A stretch of 64,000 nt of DNA from Candidatus Sericytochromatia bacterium (GCA_036676985.1 JAKFBU010000004.1:1-64000); one strand, 5' to 3'. Shown: positions 17,191-55,321, counted from the stretch's first letter. Program-made: numbers and translations. Notes: a model not told the origin generated them from the letters alone.

Positions 17191-17401
17191 CGCCTTCACC
17201 TCTTCGTGCAAGCGTCTCAGCTCGTACCCAAGCCCGGGCAGTGCTGAGTCAGCGCCCCTGGCGCACGAGTCCTCCGCGGTTCTGCCGGCTGTGTCGACGA
17301 CCGAGTGGGTCGCGCCTCTGATCAGGAGCGTGGCACGAGCGGAGGGAGGTCTGAAGGCGATGTTCCGGAAAGGTCTGGACTGACCTAGAGGTACTTTACA
17401 A

Positions 17402-46724: not shown

Positions 46725-47753
46725 ATGATTTCCGGCGTCTCGAACTCGCCCTACGCTTACCGGCCCAAGGCCACCGCGCAGACGGCTGCCGCCGCTCCGA
46801 GCGCACCGGCTGCCGATAGCTCGGCGATCGCCCCCCGTCCTCAGCAGCCCGTGGTCCAGGCGGGTGGCGGCTTCGACGCCGCAGGCCTGCTCGACGGCAT
46901 CATGAACATGCTCAAGTCGGTCGGCGCCTTCTTCGTCGGCCTCTTCAACAAGATCTTCAAGAAGGGCGGCGAGCAGCCCGCCCCGGTGGACGACAACACC
47001 CTCAAGCTGGCCCAGCAGTACAACCTGCTGCCGACCAAGGAGAACGTCGACGCCTTCGTGACCGAGGTCCAGGGCTACGCGGCCCCCGGCCCCGGCGGCT
47101 TCCAGGTCCTCGGCCCCGGCAGCCCCAACACCGAGGCCATCGGCCAGATTCAGACCGCCCTCAAGGCCTGGGGCTTCCCCGCCGAGGTGACGGGCCAGTA
47201 CGACGCCCCCACCCAGGCCGCGGTCAAGGCCTTCAAGCAGGCCAACGGCCTCCACCAGACCTACAAGACGCCCGACGGCAACTTCGCGGTCAACGAGTAC
47301 TTCGACTACCAGACCTTCCAGAAGATGCAGGAGAAGATGAACGGCGGCGGCACGACCACCCCGGCTCCCGCTCCGACCCCGACCCAGGGCAACGGCACGC
47401 TCAACTGGCAGGCGATCGCCGACCAGTACAAGCTTTACCCGACCGAGGACAACGTCCAGGCCTTCCTCGCCGAGGTGAAGAGCTACCAGACCCCCGATGC
47501 CCAGGGCTTCAAGGCCATCGGCCCCGGCTACCCCAACCAGAACGAGATCCAGGAAGTCCAGGCCGCCCTCGCCCGCGTCGGTCACCAGGTGACCCCCAAC
47601 GGCCAGTGGGACGCCGCCACCGTCAAGGCCGTCATGGACTTCAAGGCCAAGTACGGCCTGCACCAGAACTACCGCTCGCAGGACGGCAACTGGGCCATCA
47701 ACGAGTACGCCGACAAGGCGATGCTCCAGAAGCTCTCGAGCCTCCTCGGCTAG
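46725..47753 (+). CDS. Peptidoglycan-binding-repeat protein (2 units), no Sec signal
   Basis: IQTALKAWGF...GQYDAPTQAAVKAFKQANGL pattern twice; RBS aaggagg. Confidence 0.85.
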   Translation: MISGVSNSPYAYRPKATAQTAAAAPSAPAADSSAIAPRPQQPVVQAGGGFDAAGLLDGIMNMLKSVGAFFVGLFNKIFKKGGEQPAPVDDNTLKLAQQYNLLPTKENVDAFVTEVQGYAAPGPGGFQVLGPGSPNTEAIGQIQTALKAWGFPAEVTGQYDAPTQAAVKAFKQANGLHQTYKTPDGNFAVNEYFDYQTFQKMQEKMNGGGTTTPAPAPTPTQGNGTLNWQAIADQYKLYPTEDNVQAFLAEVKSYQTPDAQGFKAIGPGYPNQNEIQEVQAALARVGHQVTPNGQWDAATVKAVMDFKAKYGLHQNYRSQDGNWAINEYADKAMLQKLSSLLG

Positions 47754-47938: not shown

Positions 47939-49528
47939 ATGAACATTGGTGGAGTGCCTCAGACCCGGCTTCCCCAGCGCCCCGCGGTCAAGGCCGGCGG
48001 CCCGACCGACGGCGTGCAGCCCACCTACGCGCCGCAGCCGACGACCTACGTCCAGCAGCAGCCGACCGTGCAGCAGAACAACGTGCAGCCGATGGCCAAC
48101 ATCTTGGCGAACGTGTTCAACGGCATCGTCAACTTCCTGAAGAGCTTCTTCGGCGCCATCGCCAACATGTTCAAGGGCGCGAGCAACAACACCGGCACCA
48201 CCCCCGGTACCACCACGCCCGGCACGACGGTCCCCGGCACCACGGTGCCCACGACCCCGGCGCTCGACCCCAGCCAGGCGGCGATCGCTCAGCAGTACAA
48301 CCTGCTCGCCACCCCCGAGAACGTCCAGGCCTTCCTCGCCGAGGTCCAGAAGTACCAGGCGGACGGCGCCCTCGGCCCCGGCAACACCAACACGGCCGCC
48401 ATCCGTGACCTCCAGGGCGCTCTGGCTCGCCTCGGCTACCAGCTGCCCCAGACCGGCACCTACGACCAGGCGACCGCCCAGGCGGTGATGGCCTTCAAGC
48501 AGGCCAACGGCCTCCACCAGACCTATCGCTCGAAGGACGGCAACTTCGCGGTCAACGAGTACGCCGAGACCCAGACCCTGCAGGTCATCATGACGAAGCT
48601 TCAGGCCCTGATGACCCAGCAGCCCCCGGTCCAGCAGCCTCCTGTCGCCCAGCCCCCCGTCGTTCAGCCCCCCGTCGTTCAGCCCCCCGTCATTCAGCCC
48701 CCCGTGGTCCAGCCCCCGGTTCAGCAGCCCGGTCAGCCCAACTTCGCCGCGATCGCCCAGCAGTACAACCTCCTGAACAGCGCCGAGAACGTCAACGCGT
48801 TCCTCGCCGAGGTCCAGAAGTACCAGGCGGAAGGCGCGCTCGGCCCCGGCAGCAACAACCAGGGTGCCATCCGCGACCTGCAGGGTGCGCTCGCCCGCCT
48901 CGGTTACCAGCTTCCCCAGACCGGCACGTACGACCAGGCGACCGCCCAGGCGGTGATGGCCTTCAAGCAGGCCAACGGCCTTCGCCAGGGCTACAAGTCG
49001 GCCGACGGCAACTTCGCGGTCAACGAGTACGCTGAGACCCAGACCCTGCAGCTCATCATGCAGAAGCTTCAGGCGATGATGACCCAGCAGCCCGCCCCGC
49101 AGCCCGCTCCCCAGCCCGCCCCGGTTCAGCAGCCCGCCCAGCAGCAGCCCGCTCAGCCGGCCCCCGGTCAGCCCAACATCGCCGCCATCGCGCAGCAGTA
49201 CCGCATCCAGGCGACCCCCGAGAACGTCCAGGCGTTCCTCAACGAAGTGAAGCAGTACCAGACCGACGGCGCCCTCGGCCCCGGCAGCAACCAGACCCAG
49301 GCCATCAACGACCTGCAGACGGTGCTCAAGAAGTGGGGGTTCAACGTCAATCAGAACGGCCAGTTCGACCAGGCCACCCAGGCGGCGGTCATCGAGTACA
49401 AGAAGCGCAACGGCCTGCACCAGTCCTACCGCGCTCAGGACGGCAACTTCGCGGTCAACGAGTACGCCGACAAGCAGACGCTCGAGCACATCATGAAGAA
49501 GCTCGAGGCCGAGATGAAGGCGTCCTAA
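47939..49528 (+). CDS. Peptidoglycan-binding-repeat protein (3 units) with Gln/Pro linkers; paralog of upstream gene
   Basis: Three ~105 aa units IAQQY...ENVxAFL...LQ..L...AVxxxKxxNGL...DGNFAVNEYA. Confidence 0.88.
   Translation: MNIGGVPQTRLPQRPAVKAGGPTDGVQPTYAPQPTTYVQQQPTVQQNNVQPMANILANVFNGIVNFLKSFFGAIANMFKGASNNTGTTPGTTTPGTTVPGTTVPTTPALDPSQAAIAQQYNLLATPENVQAFLAEVQKYQADGALGPGNTNTAAIRDLQGALARLGYQLPQTGTYDQATAQAVMAFKQANGLHQTYRSKDGNFAVNEYAETQTLQVIMTKLQALMTQQPPVQQPPVAQPPVVQPPVVQPPVIQPPVVQPPVQQPGQPNFAAIAQQYNLLNSAENVNAFLAEVQKYQAEGALGPGSNNQGAIRDLQGALARLGYQLPQTGTYDQATAQAVMAFKQANGLRQGYKSADGNFAVNEYAETQTLQLIMQKLQAMMTQQPAPQPAPQPAPVQQPAQQQPAQPAPGQPNIAAIAQQYRIQATPENVQAFLNEVKQYQTDGALGPGSNQTQAINDLQTVLKKWGFNVNQNGQFDQATQAAVIEYKKRNGLHQSYRAQDGNFAVNEYADKQTLEHIMKKLEAEMKAS
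48618..48730 (+). repeat. 15-bp coding tandem repeat (QPPVV)n
   Basis: cagccccccgtcgtt-like units in tandem. Confidence 0.8.
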
Positions 49529-49540
49529 GCCGAGGTTCCC

Positions 49541-49611
49541 AATCGAAGAAGCCCGCCGGGTGTGTCCGGCGGGCTTCTTGGTTTCTAGAGGTGAGGTGGT
49601 GCGCTCTTGAT
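49541..49611 (-). ncRNA. Putative sRNA copy 1 (repeat unit 49546-49662)
   Basis: TGgCAAGAT -10, then ATCAAGAGCGCACCACCTCACCTCT and a 14-bp GC hairpin. Confidence 0.5.
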
Positions 49612-49738
49612 GCTGTCATCTTGCCATACGAGGGCTCGAGAAGCAGTTGCGTCGATCGCTCCTGATATGTGATCCTGCTATCGCCCGCTTGGCCGCTCGA
49701 TGGGACGAGCGCCTGCTTGATCCAAAGGAGGACGGTTC

Positions 49739-49963
49739 GTGACAGTCGAGATCCATTACTGCCAGATGTGAAACTACCTGCCGCGGGCGACCCGGGTGGC
49801 CGCCGAACTCAAGGAGACGCTCGGCATCGAGGCCGCGGTCATCGCGGGAGGCAAGGGCGTGTTCGACGTGCTGGTGGACGGCAAGCTGCTGTACTCCAAG
49901 CACCTGACGGCGACCTTTCCGGAGGAGGGCGAGGTGACCCGCCTGATCCGGGCGCGCTCGTGA
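49739..49963 (+). CDS. SelW/Rdx-family selenoprotein (74 aa, CxxU, TGA at 49769-49771)
   Basis: RBS aaggagg + GTG; VEIHYCQM(U)NYLPRA...GGKGVFDVLVDGKLLYSK...FPEEGEV; hairpin just 3' of TGA. Confidence 0.88.
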
Positions 49964-50095
49964 CGCGGTCGGGCTGCCTGCGCTCGCTTGGTCGTTTCCC
50001 GTTCCGGTGGAAGATGCCAACCTTCTGATCCCTCCCCGGGTTTTGGAACACTTGGGTATAAGATTTTTAGCTCACCGAACGAGAGATACTGCACG

Positions 50096-51793
50096 ATGAT
50101 CAACGGCCTTTCTTCACCGCAACCGACGCCGCAGCGGCTCGAACGTGCCCCGCTTCCCGTGGACGCCAAGCAGATCCAGGAAGCATCCGGTGGCGTGATG
50201 ACCCGTGATGCGCTCCGCAAGACAGCCGAGGCCAAGCTGGAGAACCGCAATGTCTTTGCGCTGCTGGATGGCGGCGACCTGAACGACATGCTGCGCAACG
50301 GGACGCTGTTGCCCGAACGGGCTCATTTCACGCTCGATCGGCCCCGTTTCGTGGAGAATTCCGTGCCCCTCGTGGTGCAACTCTCCGAGAACGGTAAACA
50401 GGCGCTCCTGAACGCCGACCCAGCCTTTGCCGAGGCACTGGTCGGCGACAGCTTGCAAGGTATCAAGCCCACTACCCCGTTCCGGCTCGACTCCCACGTC
50501 GCCGAGATTCTCCTGTTTGCAGAGGACAGGGAGAAGCTCTTCACGGCTTACGCCGAGAAGGCCGCCAAGGGTGAGGTGCCAGAGACGATCGCGGGTATGC
50601 CCTTCAAGACCTACTTCGAGCAGCACATCAAGGGCGCCGACGACGTGATGGCGGAGGTGGAGCTCCAGAATTTCCGGAAGCTGATTCCGGGGTTCACGAG
50701 CCTGCCGCCCACCGAGCAGCGGGTGCGCGCGGCGCTGGGTGGGAAAATGGCCGACTATTTACCCTCGGTCCTCCCCGCGGATGTGCGACGTCAGATGGCG
50801 AATACGATGATCCGCCACCAGACCTTCGACCGGGCCACTCCCGGTAGGGGGCTGGAGGTGGCCGGCGAGATCAAGGAGTTCTTCCACGGGACGACCTCGG
50901 GCAAGCTGATCTCGCGCACCGGCTTCCGAATGCAGCCCGAATTGCTCTTCAGTAAGCTGCCCAAACGGGCGCAAAACGTCTTGGAGGATAAATTCAGGAT
51001 CCGGTTCCGATCGGCGTTCGGCATGGGGGTGTATACCGGCAACGCGACGGTCGCCAGCCGCTATGCCGCCATCAAGTCCCAAAACGCGACGAGCCCCGTT
51101 CATGTCGTCAGCGGCTTGATGGCCCTGGGCAAGACGACCGTGAATGACCTCGCCGAGGACAAGCTTGCCCATACGCGGATCGTTTCGGGACAGGATTTGG
51201 AAGGTAAGTACTTCATCACTCGCGAGCCCAAGCGTTTCACCGTCAAGGGCCTGACGACCCTGGATCCCAGGCAGACCGACGGCTGGATGCGCCATTTTCC
51301 CCAGCTCCTGAAGGCCCATTCGGCCGATCCGTTCGAGATCGGGAAGCTGTTCGATCGGTTGCCGCAAGGTCCGGCCCAGCGTGCGCTCAATGAGACTCTC
51401 AAGGGGCGCGACCCCGCGACGGTGAGGAGTGCGACCCTCTTGTTGGCTCGCCGCGGTGATGAAAAGGCACTGGCCTCTACCATGAAACTGTTGGAGGGCG
51501 TGGCCTCGCCCATGGAGCGAGAGGTGATTCAGGATACGCTCATGGCGGCTCTCAAGTCGATTGGGCCCGGACACGCCGACCGGACGCGACCCATCGCCGA
51601 GGCGGTGCTGCGGCTGCCTCCCGGTCATCGGTTCTCGCCCGAGAGTCTTGCCGAGTCCCTTTTTGAGACGCTCGGCGCGGAAATCCGGCCCTTGGTCGCG
51701 CGCCACGGTCTCCAACTCCCCCCCGCACCCGCCGAAGGGGCGCTGGCGCGGGCTTGGCAGACTGCAGCCAAGGGCTTCAGGCGCCTGCTGTAA
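50096..51793 (+). CDS. Protein with PARP-like ADP-ribosyltransferase domain and helical C-terminus
   Basis: Start re-called at MINGLSS; FFHGT...GF...FGMGVY...ASRYA...LGK; atypical codon usage. Confidence 0.65.
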   Translation: MINGLSSPQPTPQRLERAPLPVDAKQIQEASGGVMTRDALRKTAEAKLENRNVFALLDGGDLNDMLRNGTLLPERAHFTLDRPRFVENSVPLVVQLSENGKQALLNADPAFAEALVGDSLQGIKPTTPFRLDSHVAEILLFAEDREKLFTAYAEKAAKGEVPETIAGMPFKTYFEQHIKGADDVMAEVELQNFRKLIPGFTSLPPTEQRVRAALGGKMADYLPSVLPADVRRQMANTMIRHQTFDRATPGRGLEVAGEIKEFFHGTTSGKLISRTGFRMQPELLFSKLPKRAQNVLEDKFRIRFRSAFGMGVYTGNATVASRYAAIKSQNATSPVHVVSGLMALGKTTVNDLAEDKLAHTRIVSGQDLEGKYFITREPKRFTVKGLTTLDPRQTDGWMRHFPQLLKAHSADPFEIGKLFDRLPQGPAQRALNETLKGRDPATVRSATLLLARRGDEKALASTMKLLEGVASPMEREVIQDTLMAALKSIGPGHADRTRPIAEAVLRLPPGHRFSPESLAESLFETLGAEIRPLVARHGLQLPPAPAEGALARAWQTAAKGFRRLL

Positions 51794-51811
51794 CGCCACT
51801 TATGCCTCACT

Positions 51812-51880
51812 GAAGGAGCCCGCCGGGTGTGCGTCCGGCGGGCTTCTGGGTTCAGAGAGGTGAGGTGGTGCGCTCTTGAT
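51812..51880 (-). ncRNA. Putative sRNA copy 2 (repeat unit 51816-51963)
   Basis: TGgCATCCT -10; same core and hairpin as copy 1. Confidence 0.5.
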
Positions 51881-52018
51881 GCTCTCAGGATGCCACACCT
51901 TCGCTCGATCGGCTGTCGGGACGATCGCTCCGCCCGTGTGAGCCTGCTTTCGCTCGCTTGCCTACTTCTCGTAGGAGGCGAGGCTCCAGCGCTTACTTCA
52001 CCAATTGATCGTGGGAAC

Positions 52019-52061
52019 TTAAAGTCGCCATAAGAATGCTGGCGACTTAACACCGCGATAA
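52019..52061 (+). promoter_or_regulatory. Two TTAA-N7-ATAA boxes with an overlapping inverted repeat
   Basis: ttaa 52019/ataa 52030 and ttaa 52047/ataa 52058; aagtcgcca...tggcgactt. Confidence 0.45.
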
Positions 52062-52118
52062 CAGCCTTGTCGCAAGGGACGATTGATTGCTTTTAGGCTA
52101 GACGGGGACGGTGCCGCG

Positions 52119-53363
52119 ATGCTCGACAATCTGCAGATGATCTATCGCATGGTCCGGAACGACGCTCCGAAGCGTGCCAAGGCGCTCGCCGCGTCCCCCG
52201 TCAAGTCGACCGTCCGCGCCGTTAGCCGCAGCGCGATGACGCCCGACGTGTTCATGCGCGGCCAGCTGCCGGCTCTCCAGGGCGTCCTGATCGATGGCGC
52301 GCAGGCCTTCTCGACCTTCAAGAACACCCTCTCGGGCGCCAAGAAGAGCATCTTGCTCGAGACCTTCACCTTCAAGGACGATGCCACCGGGCGCGAGATC
52401 GCCGACCTGCTCGTCAAGAAGCGGAGCCAGGGCGTGGACATCAAGGTCCTGCTCGATACCTACGGCACGGCGACCAACCTGCCGGATGCTCCGCACCTCC
52501 CGCTCTACCAGTTTCTCCACGAGAACGGCGTCGAGGTGCGGCTGCACAACCCCGAGGTCTTCTCGCTCAAGGAGGGGATGCCCCTCACCCATCGCAAGCT
52601 CACGATCGTCGACAACAAGCGCTTCCTCACCGGCGGCATGAACATCTCGGATCGCTACTCCAAGGAGTGGCACGACACCATGATCCGGGTGGATGGTCCC
52701 TCGACTCGCGAGGCCGTCGCGGCCTTCAACCGCAACTGGACCCGCGCGGGTGGCGAGGCCCTCCCCTTGCCGACCTTCAACCTGGCGGACCCCCGGGTCA
52801 AGGTGGTCTTCAACGATCCGCAGGCCAAGGAGTTCGGTCTGACCGAGGCCGTCTTCGGCGAGCTGCGCCAGGCCAAGAACCAGATCCGGATCATGGTGCC
52901 CTACCTGTCCGATCGCAAGCTGATGGACGAGCTGATCGCGGCACGGCAGCGCGGGGTTCGGGTCGAGGCCCTCTTGCCCAAGATGAACGACGAGAAGGTC
53001 TACGGCGACCTCAACAACGCGATCGCCCAGGAGCTCCTGGAAAACGGCGTCAAGGTCAAGTGGTACACCGGCAAGGACGTGCCGGGGCTCGCCAAGGAGC
53101 ACTTCAGCCACACCAAGGCGATGATCCTCGACCAGGACACGCTCATCATGGGCTCGGCCAACGCCGATAGCCGCTCCTTCAACGGCAACCACGAGTTGAA
53201 CGTCATCATCAAGGATCCGCACGTGGTCCAGGACGCCAAGCAGCGCCTCTGGCTGGCGGATTGGACCGCCAGCAAGCCCGCCAACCTCGAAGAGCTCCAG
53301 AATGCGAGCCTCTCGGACAAGGTCAAGCGCGGGGCCTGGAAGCTGCTTTCCCCCTTGCTCTAA
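52119..53363 (+). CDS. Phospholipase D / cardiolipin synthase-like protein without TM anchor
   Basis: Two HKD motifs (HRKLTIVD...GGMN; HTKAMILD...GSAN). Confidence 0.9.
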   Translation: MLDNLQMIYRMVRNDAPKRAKALAASPVKSTVRAVSRSAMTPDVFMRGQLPALQGVLIDGAQAFSTFKNTLSGAKKSILLETFTFKDDATGREIADLLVKKRSQGVDIKVLLDTYGTATNLPDAPHLPLYQFLHENGVEVRLHNPEVFSLKEGMPLTHRKLTIVDNKRFLTGGMNISDRYSKEWHDTMIRVDGPSTREAVAAFNRNWTRAGGEALPLPTFNLADPRVKVVFNDPQAKEFGLTEAVFGELRQAKNQIRIMVPYLSDRKLMDELIAARQRGVRVEALLPKMNDEKVYGDLNNAIAQELLENGVKVKWYTGKDVPGLAKEHFSHTKAMILDQDTLIMGSANADSRSFNGNHELNVIIKDPHVVQDAKQRLWLADWTASKPANLEELQNASLSDKVKRGAWKLLSPLL

Positions 53364-53480
53364 GGACGGCATGTCCGTCGCTGGCGAGCGCGAGGATCCG
53401 CCACGCGTCGTGCAACCGGCGCCTTCCCGATGGGGCCTGTAAGCGACCCTCACGCTCAGCAGGAAGCCGACGAACTCCGG

Positions 53481-53553
53481 AAACGACGAAGCCCGCCGGG
53501 TGTGCGACCGGCGGGCTTCTGGTTTCAGAGAGGTGAGGTGGTGCGCTCTTGAT
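53481..53553 (-). ncRNA. Putative sRNA copy 3 (repeat unit 53488-53636)
   Basis: Near-identical to copy 2 over ~150 bp. Confidence 0.5.
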
Positions 53554-53646
53554 GTTCTCAGGATGCCATACCTTCGCTCGAGCGGCAGTCGGGACGATCG
53601 CTCCGCCCGTGTGAGCCTGCTTTCGCTCGCTTGCCTGCTAACCGGC

Positions 53647-53712
53647 AAAAGGGATGGCCCGCCGGGTGTGCGACCGGCGGGCCTTGGGTCAGAGAGGTGA
53701 GGTGGTGTTGAT
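53647..53712 (-). ncRNA. Putative sRNA copy 4 (repeat unit 53656-53792)
   Basis: Core CACCACCTCACCTCTCTGA kept despite a 5-nt deletion 5' of it; hairpin followed by atccctttt. Confidence 0.5.
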
Positions 53713-53778
53713 GCTCTTAGGATGCCACACCTCCAAAGGATCGGCTGTCGGTGCGATCGCTTCTCCCGTGTGACCTTG

Positions 53779-55212
53779 CTATCGTTCGCTTGGCCGGCCC
53801 TCGGCCCCCAGGTGCCGCGAGGCAAAGGCGATCGCCTCCTCCCGGCTCGCGACCTCCCCGCGGAGCTGCGCCTCGATCACCCGGTTAAGCAGCACGCCGA
53901 TGTGCTTGCCCGGCTTGAGGTCCAGCTCGCGCATGAGATCCTTGCCGTCGACGAGCCGCTGCGGCGCCGTGTAGGCTCCATCCGGTCGGTAGTAGGCCGA
54001 CAGGAGCGCGGGCAGGACCGTGGCCAGCTCGGCCGCAATGGGGCGCTCGGCGGCCTCCTGGAGCGCGAGGCTCAGGAGCAGGAGCGCCGCGCTCGCGTCC
54101 CCTGCTGCTTGAAAGAAGCGGTAGAGGGCCACCGGGTCGTCGGGCGTCCTGGTGAGCCCTTCCGGCAGCCGCTGGAGCCGCACCAGGCGCACGAGGAAAT
54201 CCCGGGCCTTGGCCGATAGCTTCAGGCGGGTCGCGATCGCCTCCACGCGCTTGGCGCCTTCGGCCTCGTACCCGTCGTAGGAGACGGCCCCGTCTGCTCC
54301 GTAGGTCGTGCAGAAGGGCTTGCCCACCTCATGCAGGAGGGCCGCGAGCCGGAGCATGACCTCGGCCGTGGCGCCGCCGCCGAGGTCCCGGGCCAGATCC
54401 GCCCGGACCTCGGCGTCATGGGTCGGCCGGCGCGCGTCGAGGCGGCGGACGGTTTCCAGCGCATGGGCCCGCCCGTTCATCCGGGGGCTCGCCACCCGCT
54501 GGAGCATGGTGAACTCCGGCACGAGCACCATGAGCACCCCGATCCCGAACAGCCGCTCGATCCACCGGAAGGCCTGCGGCAACGCCAGGATCTTGAGGAG
54601 CTCGGCCGTCGTGCGCTCCGCGGCCACGTCCAGGAGCTTGCGCTTGTAGGTCTCGACCCACTGCAGGGTCTCGAAGTCGATGTCGAAGTCCAGCGCCGCG
54701 GCGAAGCGGAACACCCGGATCAGCCGGGCGGGATCGGCCAGGAGGTTGTCGTCGCTGATGGCCCGGACGGTGCGCCGGGCGAGATCCACCAGGCCGCCCG
54801 CGGGATCGAGGGGCTCGGGCTGCGCCACGCGCTGCCCGTTGCGCACCAGGGGCAGGGCGATCGCGTTGATCGTGAGGTCCCGCTGCAGGAGATCCGCCTC
54901 CAGGTCCGCACCCTGCAAGCGCGCCAGGTCGAGGACCGCCCCCGAGTCGAGCACGACCCGCACGATGCCGAACTCCGCGTCCAAAAGGACGTAGTGGCCC
55001 TTGAGGGCGCGGGCGATCGCCTTGCCCAGGACTTCGGGATCGGCCGAGGTCACGAGATCGACGTCGAGCTGGGCGCGACCCAGGAGGGCGTCCCGCACGT
55101 AGCCGCCGACTAGCCACAGATCGCCGCCCAGCTGGGCGGCCTGGTCGCAGCAGGCGGCGAAAAGGGGCGCGGGTTCTAGGGGAACGTTCGGAGGTTGGGC
55201 AGAAAAGGGCAT
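53779..55212 (-). CDS. Class II tRNA nucleotidyltransferase, probably CC-adding type
   Basis: LVGGYVRD, DVD, RDLTINA, DPxRxxRxxRF, ER; loop before RD motif absent. Confidence 0.85.
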   Translation of the reverse strand: MPFSAQPPNVPLEPAPLFAACCDQAAQLGGDLWLVGGYVRDALLGRAQLDVDLVTSADPEVLGKAIARALKGHYVLLDAEFGIVRVVLDSGAVLDLARLQGADLEADLLQRDLTINAIALPLVRNGQRVAQPEPLDPAGGLVDLARRTVRAISDDNLLADPARLIRVFRFAAALDFDIDFETLQWVETYKRKLLDVAAERTTAELLKILALPQAFRWIERLFGIGVLMVLVPEFTMLQRVASPRMNGRAHALETVRRLDARRPTHDAEVRADLARDLGGGATAEVMLRLAALLHEVGKPFCTTYGADGAVSYDGYEAEGAKRVEAIATRLKLSAKARDFLVRLVRLQRLPEGLTRTPDDPVALYRFFQAAGDASAALLLLSLALQEAAERPIAAELATVLPALLSAYYRPDGAYTAPQRLVDGKDLMRELDLKPGKHIGVLLNRVIEAQLRGEVASREEAIAFASRHLGAEGRPSER

Positions 55213-55321
55213 GATCGGTACCTCGGCCCCTCATCATGCCACCTGCGACGGAGGGCTGTAAACCGGACAAGAAGTGGTACAATACGCGCGTCATCCTCGT
55301 CTCGACCGAAAGGGAGCGTCA

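Follow-up and report, generated by a model that had tools for sequence, protein, structure and literature searches.

The DNA considered here is a stretch of 64,000 nucleotides from a Candidatus Sericytochromatia bacterium (GCA_036676985.1 JAKFBU010000004.1:1-64000), referred to throughout as the window, and the question it raises concerns four short repeated units on the minus strand between 49300 and 54100: are these genes, and if so, what do their products do? The source is likely an uncultured non-photosynthetic relative of the cyanobacteria, belonging to the Sericytochromatia, and its assembly (G000) comprises 4.68 Mb in 79 contigs at 67% GC and is scored 100% complete. The four units are probably members of a lineage-restricted family of independently transcribed, trans-acting sibling small RNAs (sRNAs) of ~65-75 nt that block the ribosome-binding sites (RBSs) of lipoprotein mRNAs. 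Sequence comparison supports the existence of a lineage-restricted gene family well, and makes the lipoprotein regulon plausible but unproven.

The four units share one layout. An upstream block of ~90 nt ending in TGGCA(T/A)nnT is followed by ATCAA(GAGCG), by CACCACCTCACCTCT, by a short variable spacer and by a hairpin of the form GCCCGCCGG / 6-8-nt loop / CCGGCGGGC, i.e. a 9-10 bp GC stem with a moderately U-rich tail. TGGCAnnnT, ATCAA, the CACCACCTCACCTCT core and the GCCCGCCGG/CCGGCGGGC stem are invariant in all four, the invariance of core and stem having been noted in an earlier, sequence-only reading of the stretch; GAGCG is absent from unit 4. Mean column identity in the alignment of the four units is 83%, and the 15-mer CACCACCTCACCTCT has four matches at <=2 mismatches in the window against 0.19 expected, a number reached by 0 of 100 shuffles. 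Folding of the four predicted RNAs (68-77 nt as folded) yields minimum free energies (MFE) of -25.1 to -32.7 kcal/mol with z scores of -4.5 to -6.1, and none of 200 shuffles folds as well. The 5' ~30 nt, which contain CACCACCUCACCUCUCUGAAC, are unpaired in the centroid of three of the four, a 3-bp helix forming there in unit 2. The predicted length of the sRNAs is 68-73 nt, the 5' end being placed from spacing and not mapped.

All coordinates of the units refer to the minus strand, and the positions given in the sequence-only reading were right except in unit 1, where the end, put at 49662, had cut off the first box of a block that reaches ~49701. The promoter block of unit 1 (49612-49701) thus contains box 1 CCAAGCGGGCGATAGCA, the TCAC box, the AAC box and TGGCAAGAT at 49618-49626, and scores 78.3 from position 49701 with the position weight matrix (PWM) described below; the predicted sRNA of ~71 nt (49541-49611) has its core at 49587-49601, hairpin at 49551-49574 and U-rich tail at 49541-49550 (MFE -32.6, z -6.09; covariance model score 91.9 bits). 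In unit 2 a block at 51881-51970 (TGGCATCCT at 51887-51895; PWM 78.5) precedes a predicted sRNA of ~73 nt at 51808-51880 (core 51856-51870, hairpin 51818-51843; MFE -31.9, z -4.93; 100.4 bits). Units 3 and 4 stand in tandem, the block of unit 3 (53554-53643; TGGCATCCT at 53560-53568; PWM 79.8) beginning ~13 nt past the terminator stem of unit 4; its predicted sRNA of ~73 nt occupies 53481-53553 (core 53529-53543, hairpin 53491-53516; MFE -32.7, z -5.17; 103.8 bits). Unit 4 follows a 477-aa nucleotidyltransferase gene, the TAG stop of which (53779-53781) is overlapped by box 1 of the unit; its block lies at 53713-53802 (TGGCATCCT at 53719-53727; PWM 72.9) and its predicted sRNA of ~68 nt, the one without GAGCG, at 53645-53712 (core 53693-53707, hairpin 53656-53683; MFE -25.1, z -4.54; 77.8 bits). 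None of the four units has a same-strand gene downstream, and three of the four face the 3' ends of plus-strand genes.

The mechanism proposed from these features would run as follows. Each sRNA gene would be transcribed independently from a family-specific promoter made up of box 1 CAAGCGnGCGnTAGCA, TCAC-N9-GYG and AC-N-G 17 nt before TRTGGCAnnnT, with the start, judged from spacing only, ~7 nt past the last T of TGGCAnnnT at the A of AUCAA, and with the stop at the GC hairpin and its U-rich tail. The seed would pair with the GCUCAGAGAGGUG-type ribosome-binding sites of a few lipoprotein mRNAs and so block the initiation of translation, the clearest predicted case being a beta-propeller-like lipoprotein family, and the terminator loop (..CACACC) could pair with an GGUGUGUG(A) site that lies a further 50-70 nt upstream in these 5' untranslated regions (5' UTRs). 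As in other families of sibling sRNAs, the multiplicity of copies would provide for dosage or for differential input.

Target prediction turns on the seed. Its part that is invariant across all genera and variants, CACCUCUCUGA(G/A)C, has UCACCUC (7 nt) in common with the anti-Shine-Dalgarno (anti-SD) tail of 16S rRNA, which ends GGAUCACCUCCUUUCU in two relatives. For G000 4115 genes were called by a crude codon-usage script, and lipoproteins were scored by an assumed lipobox pattern with a base rate of 11% of start regions. GCTCAGA+GAGG within 16 nt of the start occurs at 3 of 4090 starts, compared with a mean of 0.18 for 629 permuted flanks, four of which reach three; all three products begin with a lipoprotein signal, and two of them are paralogues. 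When the 4094 start regions are ranked on duplex energy for the 13-nt seed, places 1-5 all go to lipobox proteins. In 60 controls that kept CACCUC and permuted the 3' flank the top five held a mean of 0.62 and at most two lipoproteins, none reaching five; in the top twenty, five of the 60 equal the real lipoprotein count. Exact 11-mers of all G000 members give 20 matches in 5' UTRs; seven of these belong to lipoproteins, where 40 shuffles average 1.43 and never exceed 4. The predicted target lipoprotein genes include those at C6:65171-66247 and C23:219394-220659 of G000. The perfect seed partners of the G000 targets are variant members on other contigs, and the 13-mer of the window copies still ranks these targets 1st and 3rd of 4094. 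The sequence-only reading had pointed to an 8-nt match in the RBS of the 17190 gene, which is present at 17196-17203 and weak, and does not place this gene among the convincing targets: the match occurs seven times in the window, four times on the units' own opposite strands, and the remaining three compare with 1.44 expected. No Pfam match to Hfq was found in G000, a result that is uninformative because the control fails in Synechococcus too.

The pairing is best followed across genera in the main predicted target, a lipoprotein family (360-420 residues, WD40/PD40-like matches that are weak) present in 10 of 10 genomes of the taxonomic family. A site lies just upstream of the start in 13 of 22 homologues examined, as (G/A/U)(C/U)UCAGAGAGGUG in ten and as CUUGAGAGGUG or UCUGAGAGGUG in three from genus g3. 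Pairing was scored for ten of the 13, leaving out the g3 homologues of G003 and G006, whose start the gene-calling script had misplaced, and one G005 homologue whose upstream DNA lay outside the set. For nine of the ten, an sRNA encoded in the same genome is perfectly complementary over 11-16 nt. The tenth, a g3 target from G009 (a genome of the family that is 83% complete and has no match to the sRNA covariance model), pairs over 10 nt with g3 sRNAs, whose seed is CACCUCUCGAC, and over 8 nt with all others; non-g3 targets conversely pair over just 8-9 nt with g3 sRNAs. Mean pairing is 12.9 nt within a genus (n = 23) and 11.5 nt between genera (n = 67). Another lipoprotein (G000 C56:133276-134253), not related to the first, is represented in genus g2 by homologues with 28-38% protein identity, and these still have CUUCAGAGAGGAGG before the start.

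A further element, GGUGUGUGA(A) or a GU repeat, is found 50-70 nt further upstream in the lipoprotein 5' UTRs. In G000 C6 this upstream site is an 11-nt complement of the terminator loop region GUUCACACACC (loop UUCACACACC) of the type C variants described below, and in g3, where the loops read CGCACACCC, it reads GGGUGUGCG. These matches suggest a two-site interaction of the sRNA with the lipoprotein 5' UTR, and pairing with the upstream site would be the reason for the conservation of the terminator loop. A (GT)n run of ~7-9 units is also seen 35-45 nt upstream of the lipoprotein start at three loci (L093, G000 C23, in the 5' UTR of the gene at 219394-220659; L096, G001 C374; L100, G004 C47), and could be a length-variable tract as well as a site for pairing with the sRNA loop.

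Several points weigh against lipoprotein control by these RNAs. The lipoprotein idea is post hoc, having been framed after the first matches were seen; two of the top targets are paralogues and the related genomes are not independent; gene calls came from a crude script and the lipobox pattern was an assumed one. Nine of the 22 lipoprotein homologues are without the site, and the seed of the window copies ends GAAC, leaving one A-C mismatch with the G000 targets. Three broader tests in G000 were not significant: exact 10-mers (10 lipoproteins among 57, mean 6.5), flanks with <=1 mismatch (7 against a mean of 3.6, with 82 of 629 permutations reaching 7) and full 25-37-nt seeds, the 30 best energies of which hold 2-5 lipoproteins with ~3 expected. 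What enrichment there is thus comes down to a few near-perfect sites. On the side of the genes themselves, the 5' end, strand and expression of the units are all deduced, the terminator tails are only moderately U-rich, and the opposite strand carries an open frame of 20 codons.

Such points leave some room for RNAs that are made and do not mainly pair with lipoprotein RBSs, i.e. that titrate an RNA-binding protein by means of the CA/CU-rich stretch and the CACAC loop, or that, as anti-SD mimics, generally dampen the translation of mRNAs with a strong SD sequence. The seed, with its 7 nt of the 16S tail, pairs with any GGAGGUG-type SD sequence, the ranking of targets with long seeds shows no class enrichment, and the sequence of stem and loop is nearly invariant across four genera, beyond what a terminator needs. 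A high copy number (up to 18 matches per genome) would suit titration, for which, however, no candidate protein partner has been identified. This role is nevertheless considered unlikely, since the 11-16 nt that match particular mRNAs are conserved and in part co-vary from genus to genus, sites matching the loop occur in the same 5' UTRs, and the top-five lipoprotein result is lost when only the anti-SD core is kept.

Control of lipoprotein mRNAs by a family of siblings presupposes that the units are genes, and here the evidence comes from their number, spread and conservation. The four paralogous units recognized in the sequence-only reading belong to a larger set: G000 has seven exact cores, four in the window, two on C39 (1.1 kb apart) and one on C59, with 0 in a backwards control, and three diverged members (C25, C23 and C28) keep CACCTCTCTGAGC and the hairpin, bringing the genome to at least 10 copies. 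A covariance model built from the seven copies (R1) has 3-26 matches in eight of the nine other genomes of the same taxonomic family, counting both strands and weak matches, and 63 matches at E <= 1e-8 were collected in loci fetched from nine genomes of four genera. A second model (R2), built from family loci and run on 47 genomes of the class at E <= 1e-5, has 2-18 matches in eight of nine sister genomes and 11 in G000, one of which is a plain hairpin; in the 37 other genomes of the class it yields only three marginal matches, all without the motif and the promoter block. The weak matches inspected outside the taxonomic family f1 (eight from R1, three from R2) were rejected as plain terminators lacking motif or block. 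A strict exact pattern, which diverged members would escape, matched only contigs of two relatives among 185,579 species genomes. The description of the family as new is borne out by Rfam 15 (including ar14, RF02344, and ncr1175, RF02450), which has 0 window matches at gathering thresholds, the best sub-threshold matches there being of 22.7 and 21.4 bits (E 0.6-0.7), and none for the variant members or the copies in relatives. The densest cluster seen, locus L038 (G007 C22:172500-190500), has seven family members in 18 kb, six of them at E <= 1e-8; no regulator gene is evident beside this cluster, its neighbours encoding NHL/TIG-repeat, TPR and PrcB_C proteins.

The terminator covaries. In the 63-sequence alignment, which was fitted to the covariance model and so favours structure somewhat, 96.5% of cells are paired compared with 84.5% when shuffled, and 11 of 15 pairs have changed on both sides; the observed values are reached by 0 of 500 shuffles, and slid registers give 37-54%. 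Little variation is seen in the inner seven pairs, and CACAC is retained in the loop. In the 10-nt tail that follows the hairpin in the 63 units the U fraction is 0.41 for the proposed RNA strand against 0.24 for its complement, being higher on the former in 45, equal in 12 and lower in 6, though related copies are not independent. Type C variants (G000 C23:247471-247574, with orthologues in four genomes) carry, in matching orientation, a -35/-10 promoter of the usual kind and a U7 tail, and their seed lies inside a hairpin loop. Between G000 and its genus-mate G001 synteny holds at four positions, i.e. behind the peptidoglycan (PG)-binding gene, behind the nucleotidyltransferase gene, at the type B locus and at the type C locus, the first two being the positions of units 1 and 4; the units are 92-95% identical between the two genomes and the adjoining coding DNA 76-82%. 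Conservation, the covarying terminator, synteny, the polarity of the U tail and RBS complementarity thus all point to what the sequence-only reading had proposed, a family of ~70-nt sibling sRNAs that would carry a single-stranded C-rich anti-SD seed.

Could the units instead be a repeated DNA module, either bidirectional terminators joined to a conserved element or the decayed remains of a mobile repeat, lying behind convergent genes, with the complementarity in some 5' UTRs coming from related sequence that lies there inverted? Of the four window units, three stand right behind the 3' ends of plus-strand genes, so that the hairpins could terminate those genes as well, and the antisense of the G000 C6 5' UTR resembles the sRNA layout, with the seed and an CACACACC element. 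No transcripts are known: no RNA sequencing run is listed for window positions 49300-54100, part of which occurs in 20 runs of DNA or unknown type from 10 studies. A module of this kind is nonetheless distinctly unlikely. Neither the orientation of the upstream block nor its spacing relative to the hairpin ever changes, and the variants with an ordinary promoter and U7 tail keep that orientation; the units are syntenic between species and better conserved than the coding DNA beside them. The sequence-only reading had named a scattering of hundreds of copies with target duplications, as of a miniature inverted-repeat transposable element, as one finding that would undo it, and the genomes hold 2-18 copies each, with no terminal inverted repeats bounding the units, only hairpins and GCGATCGC palindromes, in a comparison that did not specifically search for target duplications.

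The upstream block is what sets the sRNA genes apart from other genes of the organism. In 46 units anchored on TGGCA, from which an 87-column PWM was made, the boxes stand at fixed distances without gaps, in the order AGCG..CAAGCGnGCGnTAGCA, (T/G)CAC-N9-G(Y)G, AC-N-G exactly 17 nt before (T)RTGGCA, and A/T-n-n-T-A. PWM scores >18 occur in the whole of G000 (4.68 Mb) only at nine block-bearing sRNA genes, which score 37-82, and it follows that no other G000 gene uses this promoter. Upstream of genes, sense and antisense counts are 72 and 63 for TGGCAnnnT and 545 and 237 for TGnTAnnnT; the former is not a generic -10 element of the organism, which suggests either an alternative sigma factor or an activator that is obligatory. 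The earlier observation that TGGCATGAT also stands upstream of the nearby nucleotidyltransferase gene is correct (55233-55241, 20 nt before the ATG), the full promoter block being absent there; it is a single 9-mer, also given by 24 of 100 shuffles. RNAalifold suggests small helices in the block, of which 45 anchored units conserve only CAC-N9-GYG, and a candidate RNA hairpin between TCAC and AC-N-G was rejected, its inner pairs reaching 0.40-0.62 against 0.36-0.53 in column shuffles. CAC-N9-GYG and its companions are read here as DNA boxes and not as an RNA helix.

The same block, read on the plus strand, contains the open frame mentioned above, and could be coding sequence for a peptide of 20 residues (M-x-x-S/G-C-H ... 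A-V ... stop) with the reverse complement of the seed as its strong SD sequence. An ATG stands at a fixed place in 36 of the 46 anchored units, 30 of these 36 keep an open 20-codon frame to the TGA of the TCAC box (shuffles: mean 23.3, maximum 29, 0 of 2000 reaching 30), and the variation within the AC-N-G box and ahead of TGGCA falls on third codon positions. Three-base periodicity is nevertheless missing, entropy being 1.33, 1.27 and 1.31 at codon positions 1, 2 and 3, and GC is 0.60, 0.62 and 0.64, compared with 1220 open reading frames used to train the gene caller and selected for third-position GC >0.8. The ten units without the ATG (nine of genus g2 and one spurious non-family row) keep the promoter boxes and RNA features, and the type C variants, outside the 46, are also without the frame. 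The frame moreover comes immediately after a strong hairpin, which leaves no space for a promoter, its SD-to-ATG spacing is 13-18 nt in most units, residues beyond C, H and V are not conserved, and kinship of paralogues inflates the count of intact frames. A peptide gene is thus quite improbable, and the 20-codon frame is treated here as a by-product of the fixed boxes.

Lastly, next to no credit is given to the alternative, raised in the sequence-only reading, of sigma-54-dependent, Qrr-like genes with TGGCA as -24 element, GC as -12 element and the upstream block as the enhancer of an activator: TGGCAT-N5-GAGCA does fit the sigma-54 consensus GG-N10-GC in six of seven G000 copies and a conserved block does lie 30-90 nt upstream, but Sigma54_DBD and Sigma54_CBD (PF04552, PF04963) have 0 matches in G000, scored 100% complete, and match four of 14 reference genomes used as controls, the Sigma54_activat matches in G000 are weak (<= 33 bits) and unspecific because that model matches all 14 controls, and the -12 GC, kept in most G000 copies, is not kept in those of G007, G004 and G002 (e.g. 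TGGCAAGATACTCCC).

The surroundings of the four units comprise genes for PG-binding proteins, a probable Rdx selenoprotein, a 601-aa protein, a PLD-like protein and the nucleotidyltransferase. Adjacent PG_binding_1 protein genes lie at 46725-47753 and 47939-49528 on the plus strand (E 2.5e-17 and 2.8e-24); the latter contains, in addition, a proline-rich, extensin-like stretch and is directly followed by unit 1 in both G000 and G001. Between units 1 and 2 are found, both on the plus strand, an open frame of 601 residues with no Pfam match at E <= 0.001 (49988-51793) and, at 49742-49960, a small gene of the Rdx family (SelW-like) that has a TGA in frame at the CxxU position (…YCQM-U-NYLP…) and matches Pfam Rdx at E 3e-18 when the TGA is read through. 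G000 has a SelA gene (C62:18511-19608), and the Rdx-family gene is, from its sequence, probably a selenoprotein gene. The palindrome GCGATCGC occurs in 2729 copies in G000, compared with 70-875 for other GC-rich 8-mer palindromes, and lies inside many of the sRNA promoter blocks (window examples 53752-53759 and 53826-53837); this abundance is taken to be the cyanobacterial HIP1 signature, in this case carried by a non-photosynthetic relative.

No regulatory RNA described for Sericytochromatia was found; in a full-text search of the literature, the one paper listed with both this name and sRNA terms is, by its title and abstract, a general review. These bacteria are uncultured, so that their physiology can be approached only through regulons derived from sequence. 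Regulators of this kind are well known, and the advance would consequently lie in a new family and its predicted regulon and not in a new principle. The predicted circuit is compact, with an exclusive promoter, about ten near-identical RNAs and few lipoprotein targets with co-varying sites, and could be rebuilt in a heterologous host; it would also offer a point of comparison for the origin and multiplication of C-rich anti-SD sRNAs such as Yfr1, LhrC and the cuckoo RNAs. A bolder and on balance doubtful extension is that the strongly amplified family (up to ~18 copies per genome) of anti-SD mimics is a self-contained circuit for control of the envelope, with exclusive promoter and two-site repression, and perhaps a counterpart or relative of Yfr1; were this true, C-rich envelope-controlling sRNAs would predate the origin of oxygenic photosynthesis.

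Among known systems, Qrr1-5 of Vibrio are sibling sRNAs that need sigma-54 and LuxO. The likeness to them lies in siblings having a special promoter used almost only for them; the difference is that G000 has no rpoN. Cuckoo or alpha-r14-type RNAs (RF02344 ar14, CCUCCUCCC loops) are likewise multi-copy, often tandem, and carry anti-SD-like C-rich motifs; those motifs lie in hairpin loops, however, whereas the seed here is a free 5' stretch, and the ar14 model gives 21.4 bits (E 0.59) against a gathering threshold of 58.8. Yfr1 of cyanobacteria, whose targets are outer-membrane or cell-wall genes, belongs to the same phylum in the wide sense, is close in size to the window copies as predicted, and resembles them in an unpaired C-rich motif beside a GC-rich terminator and in sharing CCUCAC. 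According to PMC2190773, Yfr1 is 54-69 nt long and has the ultraconserved unpaired undecanucleotide ACUCCUCACAC, two stem-loops flanking an unpaired region of 16-20 nt, a GC-rich terminator with a U tail, and a gene adjoining trxA in 27 of 31 genomes. The window copies, predicted at 68-73 nt with an unmapped 5' end, have the GC hairpin and a moderately U-rich tail, but differ in being multi-copy and not single-copy, in having only the 3' hairpin and no 5' stem-loop, and in lacking trxA among the neighbours of all four. ACUCCUCACAC is found in 0 of 10 G000 members and once in that genome, at C41:106485, outside any member and without a terminator, and a search by motif and hairpin found no canonical Yfr1 gene in G000. 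The family is not Yfr1, since the undecamer is absent, as are, at the four window copies, the 5' stem-loop and the trxA neighbourhood, and no covariance model matches. In another genome of the set, G008, a terminator-ended element (L068:644-731; C67:35343-35430, plus strand) has ACUCCUCACA, with 10 of the 11 bases of the Yfr1 motif and apparently open, is without the promoter block of the family, and may be a Yfr1-like RNA in Sericytochromatia.

The closest parallel in operation is LhrC1-5 of Listeria monocytogenes. As reported (PMC5880928), these are near-identical sibling copies, partly in tandem, that have a regulator-dependent promoter and pair with the SD region of mRNAs for the surface-exposed envelope proteins oppA, tcsA and lapB. 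The resemblance extends to multiple near-identical copies, partial tandem arrangement, a dedicated promoter and SD-region pairing, the last two being only predicted here. The differences are that no sequence relationship exists (no Rfam match), that the phylum is another, and that a single 5' seed is here combined with a conserved terminator loop. The Sericytochromatia family therefore belongs to neither LhrC nor Yfr1, while its predicted operation resembles that of both.

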